IMG/VR virus record: IMGVR_UViG_2718218139_000006
Direction: 5' to 3' (one strand)
Length of the DNA stretch: 16,353 bases
DNA from: a virus
Taxonomy: Duplodnaviria > Heunggongvirae > Uroviricota > Caudoviricetes
Of the stretch, positions 1-16,353 are shown in pieces. A program made the position numbers and the translations under genes. Below the pieces are notes generated by a model. The model worked only from the letters and a program-made list of their open reading frames with translations, did no database searches and had not been told where the DNA came from. The stretch's first letter is position 1. Every line of letters starts with the position of its first letter.

Positions 1-940
1 CTATGCTGTTTTGATATCTACGATAATCCAGTCTTTACCACGATCATCATTGTATCGGTCGGTCATTTTTCTGGATTTATGACCTAACAACTTTTGCGTA
101 TCCAGATCCTGTTCCCGATATAACCGTTCTGACAGAGATCGCTGCTCATGAAATGTGGGCGCAGTTCCTTGCTCCCATTTTATGCCACATTTTTCCCTGG
201 CCTTTTTAAAAGCCGTTGTAAGAGTATTTGCAGACACCTGGTCTCCTCTGTTTGCTTGAGAGGTAGTGTGACGGTAATGGACCAGATATTTACTAACAAC
301 AGCATCCCTGCACTGAGATATAACTTCACGAAGGGTAATATTCAGAGCATCGCATTTCAGGTTAAGCGGAATAGCAAGTTTTGAACCGGTTTTTTCCTGA
401 GTAATGTGCAACATGTCGTCCCAGATATCAGAGAATTTCAAATTGCAGATATCGCCTAAACGTTGTCCAGTGACAAGAGCAAGTAGCATCCCGCATTTTA
501 AATAGGGCTGCCGTCTGCTTACGCTGTCAAATATTGCCTGCCATTCGGACAGTGATAATCTTTGGCGGTTTACTCGATTTCGCGGTTGTTTTGTTGCCTG
601 CGCTGGGTTAAATCCTGGCGGAACATGTCCTGCGTGTTGTGCTTCTTTGAAGACGTCGATCAACACCATTCTCACGACTTGCGCCATCCTGTTATGACCT
701 TCAGCCTTTACAGCATCAATTATTTCGGCAATATCAAGTGCGGTAATATCCTTGTGGTGTTGCATTCCACAATGCTCACGGAAGAGACGAATGGGTTTGC
801 CTTTTTGCCGATAGGAGTTGGGTCTTAGTTCATTATGTTGCAGCCTGTCCTCCTGGATAGAAATATATTTATCAAGCCATTCTGTCACCGTAATGTCTGA
901 GCGCCTGCCTTTCATTCTTTCCAGACGCTCATTGACGCTT
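1..940 (-). pseudogene. int: Phage tyrosine integrase, 3' portion (312 codons plus stop), cut off from its 5' end by an IS insertion
   Basis: Translation ends ...LGHKSRKMTDRYNDDRGKDWIIVDIKTA, resembling the lambda Int C-terminus (HxxR...Y catalytic region). Stop codon at 1-3 (cta = TAG on minus). The frame continues into the IS end at 941; the Met at 970-972 in the ORF track lies inside the IS and is not the native start. Confidence 0.85.
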
Positions 941-983
941 TGAGGTGTACTGGCAATAGCGGACACTACCATTTGTTCTTTTT

Positions 984-1802
984 TTAAGCAGCCATCTGAT
1001 GATATTTTTCCCTGAAGGCTGCCGGGGAGATATTCCCCAGACGAGAGTGACGACGCTGACGATTGTAGAAAATCTCAATGTATTCCCGTATTACTGAGAT
1101 GGCTTCATCCCGGTTATTAAAACGATAGTGGCTCAGGCTCTCATTTTTCAGCGTTCCCCAGAAGCTTTCCATCGGAGCGTTGTCGTAACAGTTACCTTTA
1201 CGCGACATTGATGTTTTCAGACCAAACTGCTCCTGTATGACCCGGTAATCGTATGCGCAGTACTGTGAACCTCGATCAGAGTGGTGGATTAGCCCGGCAG
1301 GTGGGCGCTGGCTCCTGAGCGCCATAAACAGGGCTTTACCTGTCAGCTCTTTTGTCATGCGCTCTCCCATGGCGTAGCCGACAATTTCGCACGTATAAAC
1401 ATCTTTGATGCCAGCGAGGTACAACCATCCCTCCTGTGTGGCAACATACGTCAGGTCCGCCACCCAGACCTGATTTGGTGCTGTAGGAGCGAACGTCTGG
1501 TTCAGCAGATTTGGCGCAACTGGCAGATTGTGGTTCGAGTTCGTAGTCGCTCTGAACTTGCGTTTCTGCTTACAGCGTAGCCTTAGCTCCTTACGAAGAC
1601 GTGCCAGTCGGTCACGACCAACGATGATGCCATTCTCTGCCAGCTCCGTCTGGAGCCGCCGGGTTCCATATGTTTCGCGAGTGCGGATATGTGCCACCTT
1701 AATCTCCAGTTTTAGCCGCTCATCACTTTGTTTTCTGTCTGAGGGTTCATGCTGTACCCAGTTGTAATAACCGCTCCTGGATACACCAAATACCTGACAC
1801 AT
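984..1802 (-). CDS. IS3-family transposase OrfB (DDE/integrase catalytic domain), normally made as an OrfAB frameshift fusion
   Basis: 272-aa ORF with conserved IS3 OrfB motifs (WVADLTYV, HHSDRGSQY, CYDNAPMESFWGTLK). Lies in the -1 frame relative to orfA. Confidence 0.85.
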   Translation of the reverse strand: MCQVFGVSRSGYYNWVQHEPSDRKQSDERLKLEIKVAHIRTRETYGTRRLQTELAENGIIVGRDRLARLRKELRLRCKQKRKFRATTNSNHNLPVAPNLLNQTFAPTAPNQVWVADLTYVATQEGWLYLAGIKDVYTCEIVGYAMGERMTKELTGKALFMALRSQRPPAGLIHHSDRGSQYCAYDYRVIQEQFGLKTSMSRKGNCYDNAPMESFWGTLKNESLSHYRFNNRDEAISVIREYIEIFYNRQRRHSRLGNISPAAFREKYHQMAA

Positions 1803-1837
1803 CGCTTCAATGGGAAATTGTTGTCGCCATTGTTCGA

Positions 1838-2140
1838 TTAACGCGTATTTTTCAGCGACTCCTGTGCAAAATACGCTGTTGCTTTTTTTAATATATCTCG
1901 CTCAAGGCGAGCTTCATTTAACGCCTTACGCAGTTGCAGAATTTCAGATTCCAGTTCAGCCACCGTGCGGGAACCAGGAGTACCGAGCCCTTTTCTGGCG
2001 GCGGTAACCCATTGTCCTAAAGTGCCTTCAGGAAGAGATAATCGGGAAGCGCCTTCACTGATCGAAAGTTGATTTTCAAGAACCGTTCTGACAGCTTCGG
2101 CTTTGAACTCTTTAGAGTAACGTTGGGTTTTTCTGCTCAT
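1838..2140 (-). CDS. IS3-family transposase OrfA (HTH DNA-binding, leucine-zipper-like C-terminus)
   Basis: 100-aa ORF (MSRKTQRYSKEFKAEAVR...) typical of IS3-family OrfA. The slippery A-run sits near its 3' end. Start codon is about 60 bp inside the IS end. Confidence 0.85.
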   Translation of the reverse strand: MSRKTQRYSKEFKAEAVRTVLENQLSISEGASRLSLPEGTLGQWVTAARKGLGTPGSRTVAELESEILQLRKALNEARLERDILKKATAYFAQESLKNTR

Positions 2141-2207
2141 TATTAGCTCCTTCTGATGCCATTCTATTTCAGGAAGGAGTGTCCGTTAAACTCAGGCTAC
2201 CTCACTT

Positions 2208-2410
2208 AATATTTGTCGGGTACGTTGTTCAGCAATAATGGTATTTGCTTCAGTAGCAACCTGTTTTGCTTCATTCTCATCAGTTCCTAAACTATGAAAA
2301 CGACCGGATAGTGGATGTTTGTATTGCCAATATACCTTTCCGGTTCGCTTATCTAATTTGCAATATAAATTGGGTATAGAGATTTTGTGAGATCGGGGTC
2401 TAGCAGCCAT
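2208..2410 (-). pseudogene. int: Integrase 5' portion (N-terminal arm-type DNA-binding domain, 68 codons), separated from the rest by the IS
   Basis: MAARPRSHKISIPNLYCKLDKRTGKVYWQYKHPLSGRFHSLGTDENEAKQ... resembles lambda-type Int N-termini. The reading frame is continuous with the 1-940 fragment once 941-2207 (IS plus one CTT copy) is removed, giving a predicted 380-aa integrase. The int start overlaps the xis stop. Confidence 0.8.
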
Positions 2411-2636
2411 CAGCGATTATCCGTTGGAGTTTTGGGTTTGCGTTGATTGGGAGTTGCGGTTCTGCAAGCGTTCCTACAAAACGGGAATTTCGGTCAATCA
2501 TCCAGTAGCGACCAACTTTTATAGCGGGTGGGGCCATCATTTTCCCTTGCGCGTATTTTTTCAGAACTCGCTCACTTGGTGCTAAGTCCCCAAATTCTTC
2601 TTTAGCCCAGTCCTGTAAAGTGATTAGTCGAGACAT
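2400..2636 (-). CDS. xis: Excisionase (lambda Xis-like winged-helix)
   Basis: 78 aa; MSRLITLQDWAKEE...MMAPPAIKVGRYWMID aligns to lambda Xis motifs (LTLQEW, IFPPPVKDGREYLF). The 3' end overlaps the int start by 11 nt, the classic xis-int arrangement. Confidence 0.75.
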   Translation of the reverse strand: MSRLITLQDWAKEEFGDLAPSERVLKKYAQGKMMAPPAIKVGRYWMIDRNSRFVGTLAEPQLPINANPKLQRIIADGC

Positions 2637-2775
2637 TTGTCCTCCTCTTAGCTGCTGAGGGAGTTTGTGACCGATATATCTGACATGATATTAAGCTTAT
2701 GGCAGGTACATCTCTTGACTGGTCATAGAGATAAATTTAATGCTGAGAAATGCAGTATTGAATTTATCAATTTTT

Positions 2776-3015
2776 CTATTTCCTGCGTATGGCACGTAAC
2801 TTCTTAATGTGTTCTGCCGTTTCGATCTCTTCTGCTATCCGATCTGCATCAGCTTTATTCACAGGTTCAAAGTCATGATTAAAGCGGAACATGCTGGCGA
2901 TACATGTTCTGCCTTTTCGGATGTAGTGAACTTTGTTGTGGGTAGAACGCAGGATTTTGCAGGGAGTGCCGTGGTGATCGACGTACCAGGTGTTAGGAAA
3001 AATGATTCTGAACAT
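2776..3015 (-). CDS. Hypothetical small protein (79 aa) in the early-left operon position
   Basis: ATG ORF with a good Shine-Dalgarno (GAGGTG, 4-nt spacer before the ATG at 3015), co-oriented with xis/int. No family recognised. Confidence 0.5.
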   Translation of the reverse strand: MFRIIFPNTWYVDHHGTPCKILRSTHNKVHYIRKGRTCIASMFRFNHDFEPVNKADADRIAEEIETAEHIKKLRAIRRK

Positions 3016-3062
3016 TTTTACACCTCAATTGGACGATGTTGAAATTTGCTGCTTTGAGGCCA

Positions 3063-3281
3063 TCACAGTCCCCATTGTTTGTTCTTAAGTTCGATCTCCT
3101 CCTGGCAACTTGCACAAGTCCGACAACCCTGAACGGCCAGGCGTCTTCGTTCATCTATCGGATCGCCACACTCACAACAATGAGTGGCAGATATAGCCTG
3201 GTGGTTCAGGCGGCGCATTTTTATTGCTGTGTTGCGCTGTAATTCTTCAATTTCTGATGCTGAATCAATGATGTCTGCCAT
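3063..3281 (-). CDS. DksA/TraR-family C4 zinc-finger protein (phage TraR-like)
   Basis: 72 aa with CxxC-(17 aa)-CxxC (CECGDPIDERRRLAVQGCRTCASCQ) and size like TraR/lambda Orf73-type proteins. Same orientation as the xis/int operon. Confidence 0.65.
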   Translation of the reverse strand: MADIIDSASEIEELQRNTAIKMRRLNHQAISATHCCECGDPIDERRRLAVQGCRTCASCQEEIELKNKQWGL

Positions 3282-3330
3282 CTTTCATTAATCCCTGAAT
3301 TGTTGGTTAATACGCTTGAGGGTGAATGCG

Positions 3331-3356
3331 AATAATAAAAAAGGAGCCTGTAGCTC
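3331..3356 (-). terminator. Candidate intrinsic terminator on the minus strand
   Basis: Minus-strand hairpin GGAGC-TACAG-GCTCC followed by TTTTTTATTATT, just downstream of the 3380 stop. The stem is only 5 bp, so it is weak. Confidence 0.35.
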
Positions 3357-3379
3357 CATGATGATTTTGTTTTTCATGT

Positions 3380-3595
3380 TCACCGTTCCTTAAAGACGCC
3401 GTTTAACATGCCGATCGCCAGGCTTAAATGAGTCGGTGTGAATCCCATCAGCGTTACCGTTTCGCGGTGCTTCTTCAGTACGCTACGGCAAATGTCATCG
3501 ACGTTTTTATCCGGAAACTGCTGTCTGGCTTTTTTGATTTCATAATTAGCCTGACGGGCAATACTGCGAAGGGCGTTTTCTTGCTGAGGTGTCAT
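3380..3595 (-). CDS. Hypothetical small protein (71 aa from the ATG at 3595; an alternative upstream start at 3727 would give 115 aa)
   Basis: ORF MTPQQENALRSIARQANYEIKKARQQ... in early-left orientation, followed by the candidate terminator. Its 5' region overlaps the plus-strand Q-like ORF, so one of the two starts is probably wrong. Confidence 0.35.
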   Translation of the reverse strand: MTPQQENALRSIARQANYEIKKARQQFPDKNVDDICRSVLKKHRETVTLMGFTPTHLSLAIGMLNGVFKER

Positions 3596-4191
3596 TGAAC
3601 AAGTCCCATGTCGGCAAGCATACATACAAACGAAAGAAACCGCGCATTCTGGATGAAGTGACCGGCAGGTTAATAACGCTGGATAATCCGCCGATACCCG
3701 GTAAGCAGTCACGGGCGAAAGGCTCATCCATTGCCCTGGTCAGTCCGATCGAGTTCTCAACATCATCATGGCGCCGCGCGGTTCTGTCTCTCGAAGAACA
3801 TCAGAAAGCGTGGTTGCTGTGGAGTTACAGCGAAAGTGTTCGCTGGGAACATCAGGTCACCATAACGCAGTGGGCATGGAGCGAGTTTAAGACTCTGTTG
3901 GGTACCAGGAAAATTGCAGGTAAGACACTGGAACGTTTGAAGAAGTTGATCTGGCTGGCGGCACAGGATGTGAAGAACGAGCTGGCAGGGCGTAAGACCT
4001 ATGAATACCAGGAGTTGGCATCACTGGTGGGAGTGACATCAAAAAACTGGTCTGAGACATTTACTGAACGCTGGGTTGCAATGAAGCACATTTTTCTACA
4101 GCTTGATAGCCAAGCTTTATTGCTTTTAACGAAAACACGTTCAAAACAAAAGACCACATTTTCACAGCAAGATATTGCAAAACTGGATTAA
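3589..4191 (+). CDS. Putative late-gene regulator (Q-antiterminator-like by position), HTH-like segment near the C-terminus; start uncertain, possibly 5'-truncated
   Basis: 200-codon ORF immediately upstream of a terminator-rich leader and the lysis cassette, the canonical Q position. Contains an HTH-like stretch (YQELASLVGVTSKNWSETF). There is no in-frame ATG near the 5' end (only GTG/TTG candidates) and no recognised similarity to lambda Q. Confidence 0.35.
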   Translation: MSLNKSHVGKHTYKRKKPRILDEVTGRLITLDNPPIPGKQSRAKGSSIALVSPIEFSTSSWRRAVLSLEEHQKAWLLWSYSESVRWEHQVTITQWAWSEFKTLLGTRKIAGKTLERLKKLIWLAAQDVKNELAGRKTYEYQELASLVGVTSKNWSETFTERWVAMKHIFLQLDSQALLLLTKTRSKQKTTFSQQDIAKLD

Positions 4192-4260
4192 AAATCATAT
4201 ATTTTATGTAAATCTGATATTTTGCCAATGTTGTACGCACTGGCCGTAATCCAAATTCAA

Positions 4261-4296
4261 GCCCGAGGTTTAAAGCCTTGGGCTTTTCTGTTTCTG
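4261..4296 (+). terminator. Candidate intrinsic terminator / structured late-leader element
   Basis: Hairpin GCCCGAGG-tttaaag-CCTTGGGC (8 bp with one G-U pair) followed by a U-rich tract (ttttctgtttctg). Confidence 0.45.
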
Positions 4297-4372
4297 GGCG
4301 GTGAGTATCCTTCCAACGTACCCCAGCCAGGGTGTCTTCAGCTGTTGAGTTGATATTGCTTAACCCTCTGTT

Positions 4373-4398
4373 GCCAGCTACATGCTGGCTTTTTTATT
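4373..4398 (+). terminator. Candidate tR'-like intrinsic terminator between the Q-like gene and the lysis genes
   Basis: Hairpin GCCAGC-tacat-GCTGGC followed by TTTTTTATT. Confidence 0.55.
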
Positions 4399-4512
4399 CC
4401 AGGCTTGCGGGGAGCATCAACTCCGTGCTTTGTCGTTAAATTACCCCGTGAGCCTGATTTCTGACATTTAACGTCCCGGCCTTTTGTCGGCGGCGAAACA
4501 TTGGCTATTCAT

Positions 4513-4818
4513 ATGCACGAAAAAGAGAGCCTTGCCGGAGCGTTCTGGCTCGTTTTGCTGATCATCGCAGGTTGGGGCGGTCTGGTCCGCTACCTGATAG
4601 ATGTGAAGCAGAGTAAAGCAACGTGGAGCTGGATAAATGCTTTGGCTCAGATAGTGGTGTCGGGATTCACCGGTGTTATTGGTGGCCTGATCAGTATCGA
4701 AAGTGGATTCAGTATTTACATGATTCTCGCGACAGCGGGGATTAGTGGTGCGATGGGTTCGGTTGCACTGACATACTTCTGGGAACGACTGACAGGGGTG
4801 AAAAATGCAAAATCTTAA
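4513..4818 (+). CDS. Holin (not lambda S-like), about 101 aa from ATG 4513; the ORF track begins at TTG 4501
   Basis: Small protein with several hydrophobic transmembrane-like segments and a charged C-terminus, directly upstream of and overlapping the endolysin gene. Confidence 0.7.
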   Translation: MHEKESLAGAFWLVLLIIAGWGGLVRYLIDVKQSKATWSWINALAQIVVSGFTGVIGGLISIESGFSIYMILATAGISGAMGSVALTYFWERLTGVKNAKS

Positions 4819-5281
4819 TCCTCAGCGTAAAGCTTTCCTCGATATGGTGGCATGGTCAGAAGGAACGGATAACGGACGGCAGAAAACCAGAAATCATGGT
4901 TATGACGTCATTGTAGGCGGAGAGCTATTTACTGATTACTCCGATCACCCTCGCAAACTTGTCACGCTAAACCCCAAACTCAAATCAACAGCAGCCGGAC
5001 GTTATCAGCTTCTTTCACGCTGGTGGGATGCTTACCGTAAGCAGCTTGGCCTGAAAGACTTCTCCCCCAAAAGCCAGGACGCAGTGGCATTGCAGCAGAT
5101 TAAAGAACGTGGCGCTTTACCGATGATTGATCGCGGTGATATTCGTCAGGCAATTGACCGTTGCAGCAATATCTGGGCTTCACTGCCGGGCGCTGGTTAT
5201 GGTCAGTTCGAGCATAAGGCTGACAGCCTGATTGCAAAATTCAAAGAAGCTGGCGGAACGGTCAGAGAGATTGAGGTATGA
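4805..5281 (+). CDS. R: Endolysin R (lytic transglycosylase), lambda R homolog
   Basis: 158 aa; from residue 8 (QRKAFLDM...) onward matches lambda R as I recall it, while the first 7 residues differ. Confidence 0.9.
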
Positions 5282-5739
5282 GCAGAGTAACCGCGATTAT
5301 CTCCGCTCTGGTTATTTGCATCATCGTCTGCCTGTCTTGGGCTGTTAATCATTACCGTGATAACGCCATTACCTACAAGGCCCAGCGCGACAAAAATGCC
5401 AGAGAACTGAAGCTGGCGAACGCGGCAATTACTGACATGCAGATGCGTCAGCGTGATGTTGCTGCGCTCGATGCAAAATACACGAAGGAGTTAGCTGATG
5501 CTAAAGCTGAAAATGATGCTCTGCGTGATGATGTTGCCGCTGGTCGTCGTCGGTTGCACATCAAAGCAGTCTGTCAGTCAGTGCGTGAAGCCACCACCGC
5601 CTCCGGCGTGGATAATGCAGCCTCCCCCCGACTGGCAGACACCGCTGAACGGGATTATTTCACCCTCAGAGAGAGGCTGATCACTATGCAAAAACAACTG
5701 GAAGGAACCCAGAAGTATATTAATGAGCAGTGCAGATAG
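5278..5739 (+). CDS. Rz: Spanin inner-membrane subunit Rz
   Basis: 153 aa, [58 protein letters not shown]..., matching lambda Rz. ATGA start/stop overlap with R. Confidence 0.9.
5498..5680 (+). CDS. Rz1: Spanin outer-membrane lipoprotein subunit Rz1, embedded in the +1 frame of Rz
   Basis: 60 aa, [24 protein letters not shown]... with a lipobox (VVGC) and a proline-rich stretch, matching lambda Rz1. Confidence 0.85.
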
Positions 5740-5740
5740 A

Positions 5741-5762
5741 GTTGCCCATATCGATGGGCAAC
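5741..5762. terminator. Candidate bidirectional terminator hairpin between convergent Rz and bor
   Basis: Perfect 9-bp stem GTTGCCCAT-atcg-ATGGGCAAC lying exactly between the Rz stop (5739) and the bor stop (5771). Confidence 0.5.
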
Positions 5763-5770
5763 TCATGCAA

Positions 5771-6064
5771 TTATTGTGAGCAATACACACGCGCTTCCAG
5801 CGGAGTATAAATGCCTAAAGTAATAAAACCGAGCAATCCATTTACGAATGTTTGCTGGGTTTCTGTTTTAACAACATTTTCTGCGCCGCCACAAATTTTG
5901 GCTGCATCGACAGTTTTCTTCTGCCCAATTCCAGAGACGAAGAAATGGTGGGTGATGGTTTCCTTTGGTGTTACTGCTGCCGGTTTGTTTTGAACAGTAA
6001 ACGTCTGTTGGGCACATCCTGTAATAAGCAGGGCCAGCGCAGTAGCGAGTAGCATTTTTTTCAT
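5771..6064 (-). CDS. bor: Bor lipoprotein (serum-resistance-associated lysogenic conversion protein)
   Basis: 97 aa, MKKMLLATALALLITGCAQQ... with signal peptide and lipobox (LITGC); matches lambda Bor. Confidence 0.9.
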   Translation of the reverse strand: MKKMLLATALALLITGCAQQTFTVQNKPAAVTPKETITHHFFVSGIGQKKTVDAAKICGGAENVVKTETQQTFVNGLLGFITLGIYTPLEARVYCSQ

Positions 6065-6208
6065 GGTGTTATTCCCGATGCTTTTTAAAGTTCGCAGAAT
6101 CGTATGTGTAGAAAATTAAACAAACCCTAAACAAACCCTAAACAATGAGTTGAAATCTCATATTGTTAATATTTATTAATGTATGTCAGATGCGAAGGAT
6201 CGTCACTG

Positions 6209-6274
6209 TATTCCCGGATTAACTATGTCCGCAGCCCTGACAGGGAAACTCCTCTGCGGGAGTGTCCGGGAATA
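6209..6274. repeat. Nested dyad-symmetry element in the bor-downstream intergenic region
   Basis: Perfect 10-bp inverted repeat TATTCCCGGA (6209-6218) / TCCGGGAATA (6265-6274) enclosing an inner inverted repeat CCGCAG (6229-6234) / CTGCGG (6254-6259) and a central CCCTG-a-CAGGG. Confidence 0.6.
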
Positions 6275-6366
6275 ATTAATAACGATGCACACAGGGTTTA
6301 GCGCGTACACGTATTGCATTATGCCAACGCCCCGGTGCTGACACGGAAGAAACCGGACGTTATGAT

Positions 6367-6900
6367 TTAGCGTGGAAAGATTTGTGTAGTGTTCTGAATG
6401 CTCTCAGTAAATAGTAATGAATTATCAAAGGCATAGTAATATCTTTTATGTTCGTGGATATTTGTAACCCATCGGAAAACTCCTGCTTTAGCAAGATTTT
6501 CCCTGTATTGCTGAAATGTGATTTCTCTTGATTTCAACCTATCATAGGACGTTTCTATAAGATGCGTATTTCTTGAGAATTTAACATTTACAACCTTTTT
6601 AAGTCCTTTTATTAACACAGTGTTATCGTTTTCTAACACAATGTGAATATTATCTGTGGCTAGATAGTAAATATAATGTGAGACATTGTGACGTTTTAGT
6701 TCAGAATAAAACAATTCACAGTTTAAATCTTTTCGCACTTGATCGAATATTTCTTTAAAAATGGCAACCTGAGCCATTGGTAAAACCTTCCATGTGATAC
6801 GAGGGCGCGTAGTTTGCATTATCGTTTTTATTGTTTCAATCTGGTCTGACCTCTTTGTGTTTTGTTGATGATTTATGTCAAATATTAGGAATGTTTTCAA
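6367..6900 (-). CDS. Conserved lambdoid late-region hypothetical protein (at the position of the lambda ORF downstream of bor)
   Basis: 177-aa ORF co-oriented with bor. Its position relative to Rz/bor/cos matches an unnamed lambda ORF. Confidence 0.55.
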
Positions 6901-7062
6901 TTAATAGTATTGGTTGCGTAACAAAGTGCGGTCCTGCTGGCATTCTGGAGGGAAATACAACCGACAGATGTATGTAAGGCCAACGTGCTCAAATCTTCAT
7001 ACAGAAAGATTTGAAGTAATATTTTAACCGCTAGATGAAGAGCAAGCGCATGGAGCGACAAA

Positions 7063-8562: not shown

Positions 8563-12056
<3,494 letters not shown>

Positions 12057-12060
12057 CGTC

Positions 12061-12636
12061 ATGTCAGAGCAGAAAAAGACCTGGGCGGCTGAAGACCAGC
12101 TTCGCGGGAGCTGGATGGCAGGCCTGAAGTCCGGCTGGAGTGAGTGGGAAGAGAGCGCCACGGACTGTATGTTGCAGGTAAAAAGTGCAGCCACGCAGAC
12201 CTTTGATGGTATTGCACAGAATATGGCGGCGATGCTGACCGGCAGTGAACAGAACTGGCGTAGCTTCACCCGTTCCGTGCTGTCCATGATGACAGAAATT
12301 CTGCTTAAGCAGGCAATGGTGGGGATTGTCGGGAGTATCGGCAGCGCCATTGGCGGGGCTGTTGGTGGCGGCGCATCCGCGTCAGGCGGTATGGCTTACA
12401 GCCGTGTGTCGACTTTCTCCGGGGATTATCTCCGCGTAACTGACAACAAGGGGAAAACGCACGACGTGCTGACCGGAAGTGATGACGGTCGCCACAGCAA
12501 CACGTCTCTGGCGTGGGGAGCTGGCGTGCAGTTTAACCCGACCGAATCCGTGGCCATTGATATTGCTTATGAAGGCTCCGGCAGTGGCGACTGGCGCACT
12601 GACGGTTTCATCGTGGGTGTCGGTTATAAGTTCTGA
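12061..12636 (+). pseudogene. Chimeric ORF: internal C-terminal segment of tail tape-measure H fused in frame to the C-terminal about 80 residues of outer-membrane protein Lom
   Basis: First 110 residues (MSEQKKTWAAEDQLRG...GGAVGGGASASGG) match the C-terminal region of lambda gpH; the remainder (...SLAWGAGVQFNPTESVAIDIAYEGSGSGDWRTDGFIVGVGYKF) is the Lom/Ail-family C-terminus. Junction near 12388-12393. Confidence 0.8.
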
Positions 12637-15772: not shown

Positions 15773-16353
15773 TGGCATTCAGAATGAGTGAACAACCACG
15801 GACCATAAAAATTTATAATCTGCTGGCCGGAACTAATGAATTTATTGGTGAAGGTGACGCATATATTCCGCCTCATACAGGTCTGCCAGCAAACAGTACC
15901 GATATTGCACCACCAGATATTCCTGCTGGCTTTGTGGCTGTTTTCAACAGTGATGAGGCATCGTGGCATCTCGTTGAAGACCATCGGGGTAAAACGGTTT
16001 ATGACGTAGCGTCAGGGGACGCGTTATTTATTTCTGAACTCGGTCCGTTACCGGAAAATGTTACCTGGTTATCGCCGGAAGGGGAGTTTCAGAAGTGGAA
16101 CGGCACAGCCTGGGTGAAAGATGCAGAAGCAGAAAAACTGTTCCGGATCCGGGAGGCGGAAGAAACAAAAAACAGCCTGATGCAGGTAGCCAGTGAGCAT
16201 ATTGCGCCACTTCAGGATGCTGTAGATCTGGAGATCGCAACGGAGGAAGAAAACTCGTTGCTGGAAGCCTGGAAGAAGTATCGGGTGTTGCTGAACCGTG
16301 TTGATACATCAACTGCACCTGATATTGAGTGGCCTGTAATACCAGAAGTTTAA
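15772..16353 (+). CDS. tfa: Tail fibre assembly protein Tfa (chaperone)
   Basis: 193 aa, [79 protein letters not shown]..., matching lambda Tfa. TAATG overlap with the stf stop. Confidence 0.9.

Follow-up and report, generated by a model that had tools for sequence, protein, structure and literature searches.

The DNA considered here is a 16,353-nucleotide (nt) stretch, IMG/VR virus record IMGVR_UViG_2718218139_000006, and the term "window" and all coordinates refer to this whole stretch. The window is a defective phage-21/lambda-like (lambdoid) prophage integrated beside icd. Over positions 1-6973 it shares 99.986% identity with NCBI assembly GCA_003015365.1, in which icd flanks the integrase gene, and the early region is 99.9% identical to that of Escherichia coli 2013C-4974 and OkiPb01713. 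The int/xis module is of the phage 21 type, and icd is also the site of phage 21. Between the excisionase gene xis and the lysis genes lies a cluster of open reading frames (ORFs): three on the minus strand, of 79, 72, and 115 amino acids (aa), and one on the plus strand of 200 codons (3589-4191), which begins with GTG and lacks an in-frame ATG near its 5' end. The 115-aa ORF (3380-3727) has an internal methionine at 3595, which defines a 71-aa form. These four frames were described by the original prediction with exactly the coordinates of the ORF list, including the overlap of the last minus-strand ORF with the plus-strand ORF; a further minus-strand ORF of 29 codons, between the genes for the 72-aa protein and the 71-aa form, was absent from it.

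Each of the four ORFs matches a known lambdoid family, although none had been thought identifiable from sequence alone: the 79-aa ORF belongs to DUF4222 (phrog_285), the 72-aa ORF is the TraR/DksA-type zinc finger Orf73 (phrog_54), as its class had been read correctly, the 115-aa ORF contains Orf61 (phrog_303), and the 200-codon ORF contains a Q antiterminator of the Q82 family (PF06323; PMC9388147). The Pfam and PHROG E-values run from 1e-8 to 8e-80, so these are not chance frames. The locus is already known, as the central feature described below is present and annotated in RefSeq genomes and all components belong to known lambdoid families.

The two sides of the locus have different counterparts. 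The left arm, at 2640-3622, is collinear with viable lambdoid phages and 99.5% identical to the intact phages 4A7, Lambda_4C10, 1W, and 3W; in 183 matching phage records, homology to the exo-xis region ends at 3622. Homology to Q begins at 3621, with 95.9% identity to PhiR47_2 and 94.6% nucleotide identity to the Q gene of phage 82 (X92588) over 3621-4191. In a three-way alignment with PhiR47_2, the window switches cleanly from one arm to the other at 3621-3622, where the dinucleotide TA is common to both parents. The same two flanks are separated in PhiR47_2 by 13,605 bp, which carry orf63, orf60a, exo, bet, gam, kil, a toxin-antitoxin pair, cI, cro, cII, O, P, ren, ninB, ninE, ybcO, rusA, ylcG, and the first 40 codons of Q. 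The clean switch, the two shared bases, and the 13,605-bp gap point to a single deletion by illegitimate recombination, and the locus is almost certainly the scar of one such event of ~13.6 kb in the icd-adjacent prophage. The absence of about 15 kb of recombination, immunity, and replication genes had been recognized beforehand and is borne out by this comparison with an intact phage. The suggestion of an accessory ("moron") slot is not, as the locus is a deletion joint that runs from the conserved exo-xis region to a truncated Q gene.

The deletion would have begun 13 codons into the 93-aa form of orf61, just upstream of the start of the 71-aa form, and ended at codon 40 of Q; it would have removed the genes from orf63 to ylcG, including the immunity region with the pL and pR promoters and the nin genes, together with the start of Q. 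To the left, DUF4222, Orf73, the 29-codon ORF, and Orf61 are intact and near-identical to the copies in viable phages; to the right, Q is left without a promoter, a ribosome-binding site, a start codon, and its first 40 residues. Each truncated frame stays open for dozens of codons into the antisense of the other gene, and this accounts for the long overlapping ORFs. The 115-codon ORF consists of 35 antisense-Q codons followed by Orf61 residues 14-93, and it aligns with the 93-aa Orf61 only from residue 36 on (Tyr36 of YACRHG). The 200-codon ORF consists of 11 antisense-orf61 codons followed by Q codons 41-229. The overlapping pair was therefore rightly suspected, since both frames run across one deletion joint.

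Table. Features of the locus and its surroundings, in window coordinates.
Feature	Position	Strand	Evidence or remark
IS600 in the phage-21-type int	941..2204	-	match to IS3-like element IS600, 99.4-99.7%; length 1264 bp
xis, excisionase; left boundary of the locus	2400..2636	-	PF07825, phrog_629; RefSeq "excisionase" in 2013C-4974
DUF4222 protein, 79 aa	2776..3015	-	PF13973 E=1.4e-19; phrog_285 E=8e-37
TraR/DksA-family zinc finger, lambda Orf73 orthologue, 72 aa	3063..3281	-	PF01258, phrog_54
Conserved 29-codon ORF between orf61 and orf73	3288..3377	-	equals phage 21 CPT_21_39; 31-codon ORF annotated in PhiR47_2
Terminator-like hairpin "t2" and T-run	3333..3357 (hairpin 3357-3343)	-	between orf61 and orf73
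Orf61 homologue, 71-aa form	3380..3595	-	phrog_303 E=2.8e-39; AlphaFold2 (AF2) predicted local distance difference test (pLDDT) 89.5
Spurious 5' extension of the 200-codon ORF, 11 codons	3589..3620	+	antisense of orf61 and leader; alignment with intact Q (229 aa)
Deletion joint	3621..3622	.	2-bp "TA" microhomology; three-way alignment
5'-truncated Q antiterminator, phage 82 family, pseudogene	3621..4191	+	codons 41-229 plus stop
Spurious 5' extension of the 115-codon ORF, 35 codons	3623..3727	-	antisense of the Q remnant
Promoter-like TTGCAA-17-TATATT, candidate pR'	4175..4203	+	by position only; just 3' of Q
Two strong intrinsic-terminator-like hairpins, candidate tR'	4259-4285, 4373-4389 (4259..4389)	+	between candidate pR' and the holin gene

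The exo-xis genes of lambdoid phages are transcribed from pL (PMC8614690, PMC9239242). The loss of pL and N would have deprived the leftward genes of their normal transcription, and orf73 and DUF4222 are probably silent or weakly expressed. Between orf61 and orf73, the core of the terminator-like hairpin t2 is kept in lambda, phage 21, PhiR47_2, 2013C-4974, and one more compared locus, with one mismatch here relative to the published lambda t2. The exo-xis analysis that names t2 also predicts a promoter, p1, which overlaps t2 upstream of orf73 (PMC4195576), and whatever expression of orf73 and DUF4222 is left would have to start from this internal, software-predicted p1. Two observations weigh against an inert remnant. 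The window keeps the sequence of p1, a promoter predicted in lambda and Phi24B, but for one mismatch, so orf73 and DUF4222 may not be silent. Moreover, the three leftward genes are intact, with 0 frameshifts or stops, which fits a recent deletion but also some retention. A scan for sigma-70 promoters gave 5 hits, compared with 3.5 +/- 2.2 in shuffled sequence; as this is not above chance, the scan is used neither for nor against expression. On the minus strand, a promoter-like site at 4228-4201 that might drive antisense-Q/orf61 transcription was dropped as indistinguishable from chance.

Retention would acquire a function if the prophage genes had been domesticated, with DUF4222, the Orf73/TraR-like protein, and Orf61 kept by selection as modulators of host transcription and expressed from an internal promoter independently of pL. 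Such a role would parallel that of RgdR, a prophage-borne DUF4222 protein that regulates type III secretion and motility in enterohemorrhagic E. coli (EHEC). It is, however, highly unlikely in view of the fate of the same genes in related prophages. The identical orf61-to-Q joint is found in 7 of 5,426 complete E. coli genomes, and in five of these seven a second deletion of 733 bp (window 2681-3413) has eliminated DUF4222, the TraR gene, and the 3' end of orf61. The O157 relatives truncate DUF4222 (the icd prophage of O157 PV15-279 has its own deletion, from the middle of DUF4222 to ylcG), and Sakai Sp8 lacks the whole set: xis there leads directly to the replication genes (O; 38293-45001 in the Sakai locus compared), so that this prophage has independently lost its entire leftward early operon. 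Lambda Orf73, when expressed, retards the growth of the host (PMC9239242), and its constitutive production would therefore carry a cost. Furthermore, p1 is a software prediction, and the DUF4222 protein of the window, in which the RGD motif is absent, is only 30% identical to RgdR across 47 residues.

The icd-site element is thus undergoing ordinary prophage decay, which is ongoing, rather than being retained. The icd prophage of strain A10 also has its own central deletion, with fragments of orf63, rusA, and Q. The late region of the window is eroded as well: the portal gene is broken into separate frames at 10662-11600 and 11649-12056, and at a late joint near 12037/12038 about 8.1 kb have been lost relative to the O157 prophage. 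The ORF at 12061-12636 is a chimera of a tape-measure C-terminus (PF09718) and a Lom C-terminus (PF06316), and is the second junction-made ORF in the window. Strain 2013C-4974 has the early joint in common with the window but a different late deletion, from the middle of the terminase gene to the tail genes (relative to window 9413-12385); the early deletion therefore predates the divergent late losses. In the lineage with the 733-bp deletion (2014C-3011 and four other genomes), the xis-proximal spacer is fused to orf61, and the resulting ORF of 85 aa carries the RefSeq name "cell division protein ZapA", which has no Pfam or NCBIfam support.

A second rival explanation concerns the 115-codon minus-strand ORF, which might encode a genuinely new fusion protein, Orf61 behind 35 novel N-terminal residues. 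The frame opens with ATG at 3727 and continues without interruption, and a PHROG profile alignment nominally extends to residue 29, seemingly 7 residues beyond the joint; direct alignment shows that this is over-extension of the profile. The first 35 residues are antisense Q without a homologue, no promoter was identified upstream, the folded domain lies wholly within the 71-aa form, and the independent annotations of RefSeq and GCA_003015365.1 both call the 71-aa form. A genuine fusion protein is thus extremely unlikely, and the 115-codon frame is best regarded as orf61 extended across the joint.

The plus-strand ORF is likewise best regarded as a Q remnant. It matches PF06323 (E=8.1e-80) over profile positions 34-217 of 220 and phrog_304 (E=6.8e-87), and it lacks profile positions 1-33 and residues 1-40 of the 229-aa protein. 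In RefSeq it is listed as a pseudogene ("incomplete; missing N-terminus"). Although the frame is open for 200 codons, its 189 Q-derived residues are ~95-97% identical to intact Q proteins, and the candidate pR', terminators, and lysis genes downstream are intact, a shortened Q that still works without its N-terminus, with translation beginning at GTG 3589 or at a start further inside, has next to no likelihood, because the deletion took residues 1-40 together with the native start, the ribosome-binding site, and all promoters upstream, the sole Shine-Dalgarno-like sequence (GAGG) overlaps the GTG itself, no in-frame ATG occurs before residue 164, RefSeq calls a pseudogene, and an open frame is what a recent deletion leaves anyway. 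Amino-acid differences from intact Q are clustered at residues ~50-85 of the remnant (window 3650-3760), with ~6 within 30 residues after the joint and almost no changes across the remaining 140 residues; this cluster could reflect mosaic recombination or relaxed constraint.

The region of the candidate pR' is collinear with an O157 prophage that has an intact Q. Without Q protein, transcripts from the late promoter would stop at the terminators at 4259-4389, ahead of the holin gene, which begins at ~4501. Because Q has lost its promoter, ribosome-binding site, start, and N-terminus, the intact holin, lysozyme, Rz, and late genes are presumably silent.

Among the leftward genes, the TraR-like protein is the best characterized by its relatives. 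It matches PF01258 with E=1.2e-8, above the gathering score, and the TraR structures 5w1s/6n57 at E ~3e-5, and 65 of its 72 residues (90%) are identical to lambda Orf73. The C4 finger CxxC-17-CxxC is kept (C35/C38 and C56/C59, 17 residues apart), and the extra cysteines C36 and C53 are the same as in lambda Orf73, for six cysteines in all. In the HMMER alignment to TraR 5w1s_M, ERRRL stands opposite TraR EARRK and provides an Arg pair like R48/R49, with the residue numbering inferred. In TraR, R48/R49 contact the rim helices and beta' Si3. The DxxDxA motif is also kept, as D3-I-I-D6-S-A8 in MADIIDSA. This motif lies in the N-terminal helix and contacts the active-site region of RNA polymerase (RNAP; motif and zinc-finger description in PMC9239242). 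Lambda Orf73 is expressed from pL, binds RNAP, inhibits rRNA and ribosomal protein (r-protein) promoters, slows host growth, and raises burst size (PMC9239242). If made, the 72-aa protein would act like lambda Orf73 at the secondary channel of RNAP, with rRNA and r-protein promoters inhibited; judging from its 90% identity to lambda Orf73, it should bind RNAP and inhibit these promoters.

The DUF4222 protein is identical to phage 21 gp36 at 71 of 79 residues (90%) and has 154 homologues in Escherichia, Salmonella, Citrobacter, and Enterobacter. Its predicted fold (pLDDT 87.3) is a five-stranded SH3/Tudor-like beta-barrel with a long C-terminal helix. RgdR (ECs1581) of EHEC, which itself matches PF13973 with E=2.1e-23, is the sole characterized member of the family; it activates LEE1/type III secretion and represses motility, and its binding to DNA is non-specific (PMC3378721, PMC10877973). 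Orthology to RgdR has been defined by >77% similarity over 99 aa and an RGD at residues 20-22 (Flockhart et al., PMC3378721), and was rejected for the protein of the window, which is 30% identical over 47 residues and lacks the motif. The barrel resembles the RNAP-binding domains of UvrD, PcrA, and CarD, and DUF4222 might be a second RNAP-targeting factor beside Orf73, both made from the predicted p1. This is highly unlikely, but if true, it would provide the first mechanism for the DUF4222/RgdR family.

The 71-aa form of Orf61 is identical to phage 21 gp40 at 71 of 71 residues and corresponds to residues 23-93 of the 93-aa Orf61 of the Phi24B/PhiR47_2 type. AF2 predicts a three-helix bundle, and a homeodomain-like, three-helix DNA-binding fold has been proposed for Orf61 (PMC8614690). 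The gene has kept orf73 as its neighbor, and the deletion joint replaces the orf63 side. A frameshift sets the annotated orf61 of lambda (61 aa; lambda locus 3013-3325) apart from the 93-aa Orf61 of other lambdoid phages, as is also stated in PMC8614690, and lambda keeps the C-terminal two-thirds as a separate 60-codon frame. The NCBI name of some Orf61 homologues, again "cell division protein ZapA", is rejected for lack of support in the Pfam and NCBIfam searches. The 29-codon ORF (MKNKIIMELQAPFLLFAFTLKRINQQFRD) is called as a 29-aa gene in GCA_003015365.1 and overlaps both the t2 hairpin and the predicted p1. Its counterpart in phage 21 is annotated "putative secreted protein", and it may equal orf2313, a 31-aa lambda peptide known from ribosome profiling.

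At the left end of the window, the integrase gene is interrupted by IS600. Homology to int covers 1-940 and resumes at 2205, with int pieces at 1-972 and 2192-2410, and a 3-bp overlap in the alignment with the int of 2013C-4974 suggests a 3-bp target duplication. A search of 5,426 complete E. coli genomes found IS600 at this int site in none of them; GCA_003015365.1 does have it at the same site. With int interrupted, the element cannot excise. The Rfam scan found 0 RNA families in 2400-4600, its sole match in the window being a full-length IS009 (RF02111; 227.9 bits) at 16115-16313 on the plus strand, inside the tail-fibre-assembly gene; no tRNA or tmRNA genes were found. Searches of PDB sequences gave no match for DUF4222, Orf61, or the Q remnant, and NCBIfam none for DUF4222, Orf61, Q, or xis.

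The original prediction had seen in this locus a plausible place for an undescribed function, such as anti-defence or exclusion, unless its ORFs proved to be characterized lambdoid early or nin-region proteins. They largely are, and fall short of this only in the mechanisms of DUF4222 and Orf61. In PADLOC-DB there is no real match for any of the ORFs: the defence models have none for DUF4222, Orf61, or the Q remnant, and only a marginal zinc-ribbon hit (E=0.005) for the TraR-like protein. DUF4222 and Orf61 are common in intact phages and not special to this locus; their roles are generic to lambdoid phages and better studied in intact phages than in a remnant. The locus is a clear case in which one prophage deletion yields long overlapping ORFs that resemble novel genes, and it belongs to an icd-site prophage family that repeatedly loses its central block of immunity, replication, and recombination genes. 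Its importance beyond correct annotation is little.

In comparison to known systems, the left arm is the xis-proximal half of a lambdoid exo-xis region. The order orf61, small ORF/t2, orf73 adjoins xis as it does in lambdoid phages, with the t2 core conserved, Orf73 close to that of lambda, and Orf61 the same as that of phage 21 and matching the 93-aa Phi24B-type protein from residue 14. In contrast to the full region, everything from orf63 and orf60a on to Q is deleted, along with pL and N. DUF4222 stands in the place of lambda ea22/ea8.5, as in phage 21 and phage 4A7. The TraR-like protein has in common with lambda Orf73 and F-plasmid TraR the PF01258 finger, DxxDxA, and the Arg pair of the globular domain, and with lambda Orf73 the six cysteines; it differs from lambda Orf73 in its last 12 residues, which form the C-terminal helix, in V49A, and in the loss of its native promoter context. 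Like RgdR, which is encoded by the cryptic prophage CP-933C/Sp7 of EHEC O157:H7, the DUF4222 protein is a small prophage-encoded member of PF13973, but it is distant in sequence, 79 rather than 99 aa long, without the RGD tripeptide, and found in a lambdoid exo-xis region rather than in a P4-like element. The Q remnant resembles phage 82 Q in sequence and in being followed by a promoter-like site, two terminators, and the holin/lysozyme/Rz genes, and differs from it in that codons 1-40 are missing, as are the start codon and ribosome-binding site. The closest counterparts of the whole element are the defective icd prophages of Sakai (Sp8), O157 PV15-279, A10, 2013C-4974, and 2014C-3011, which carry int/xis of the phage 21 type at icd, share the lysis, bor, ybcV, and ybcW genes, and have central deletions of the immunity/replication region; each lineage has its own breakpoints, and none has IS600 in int.

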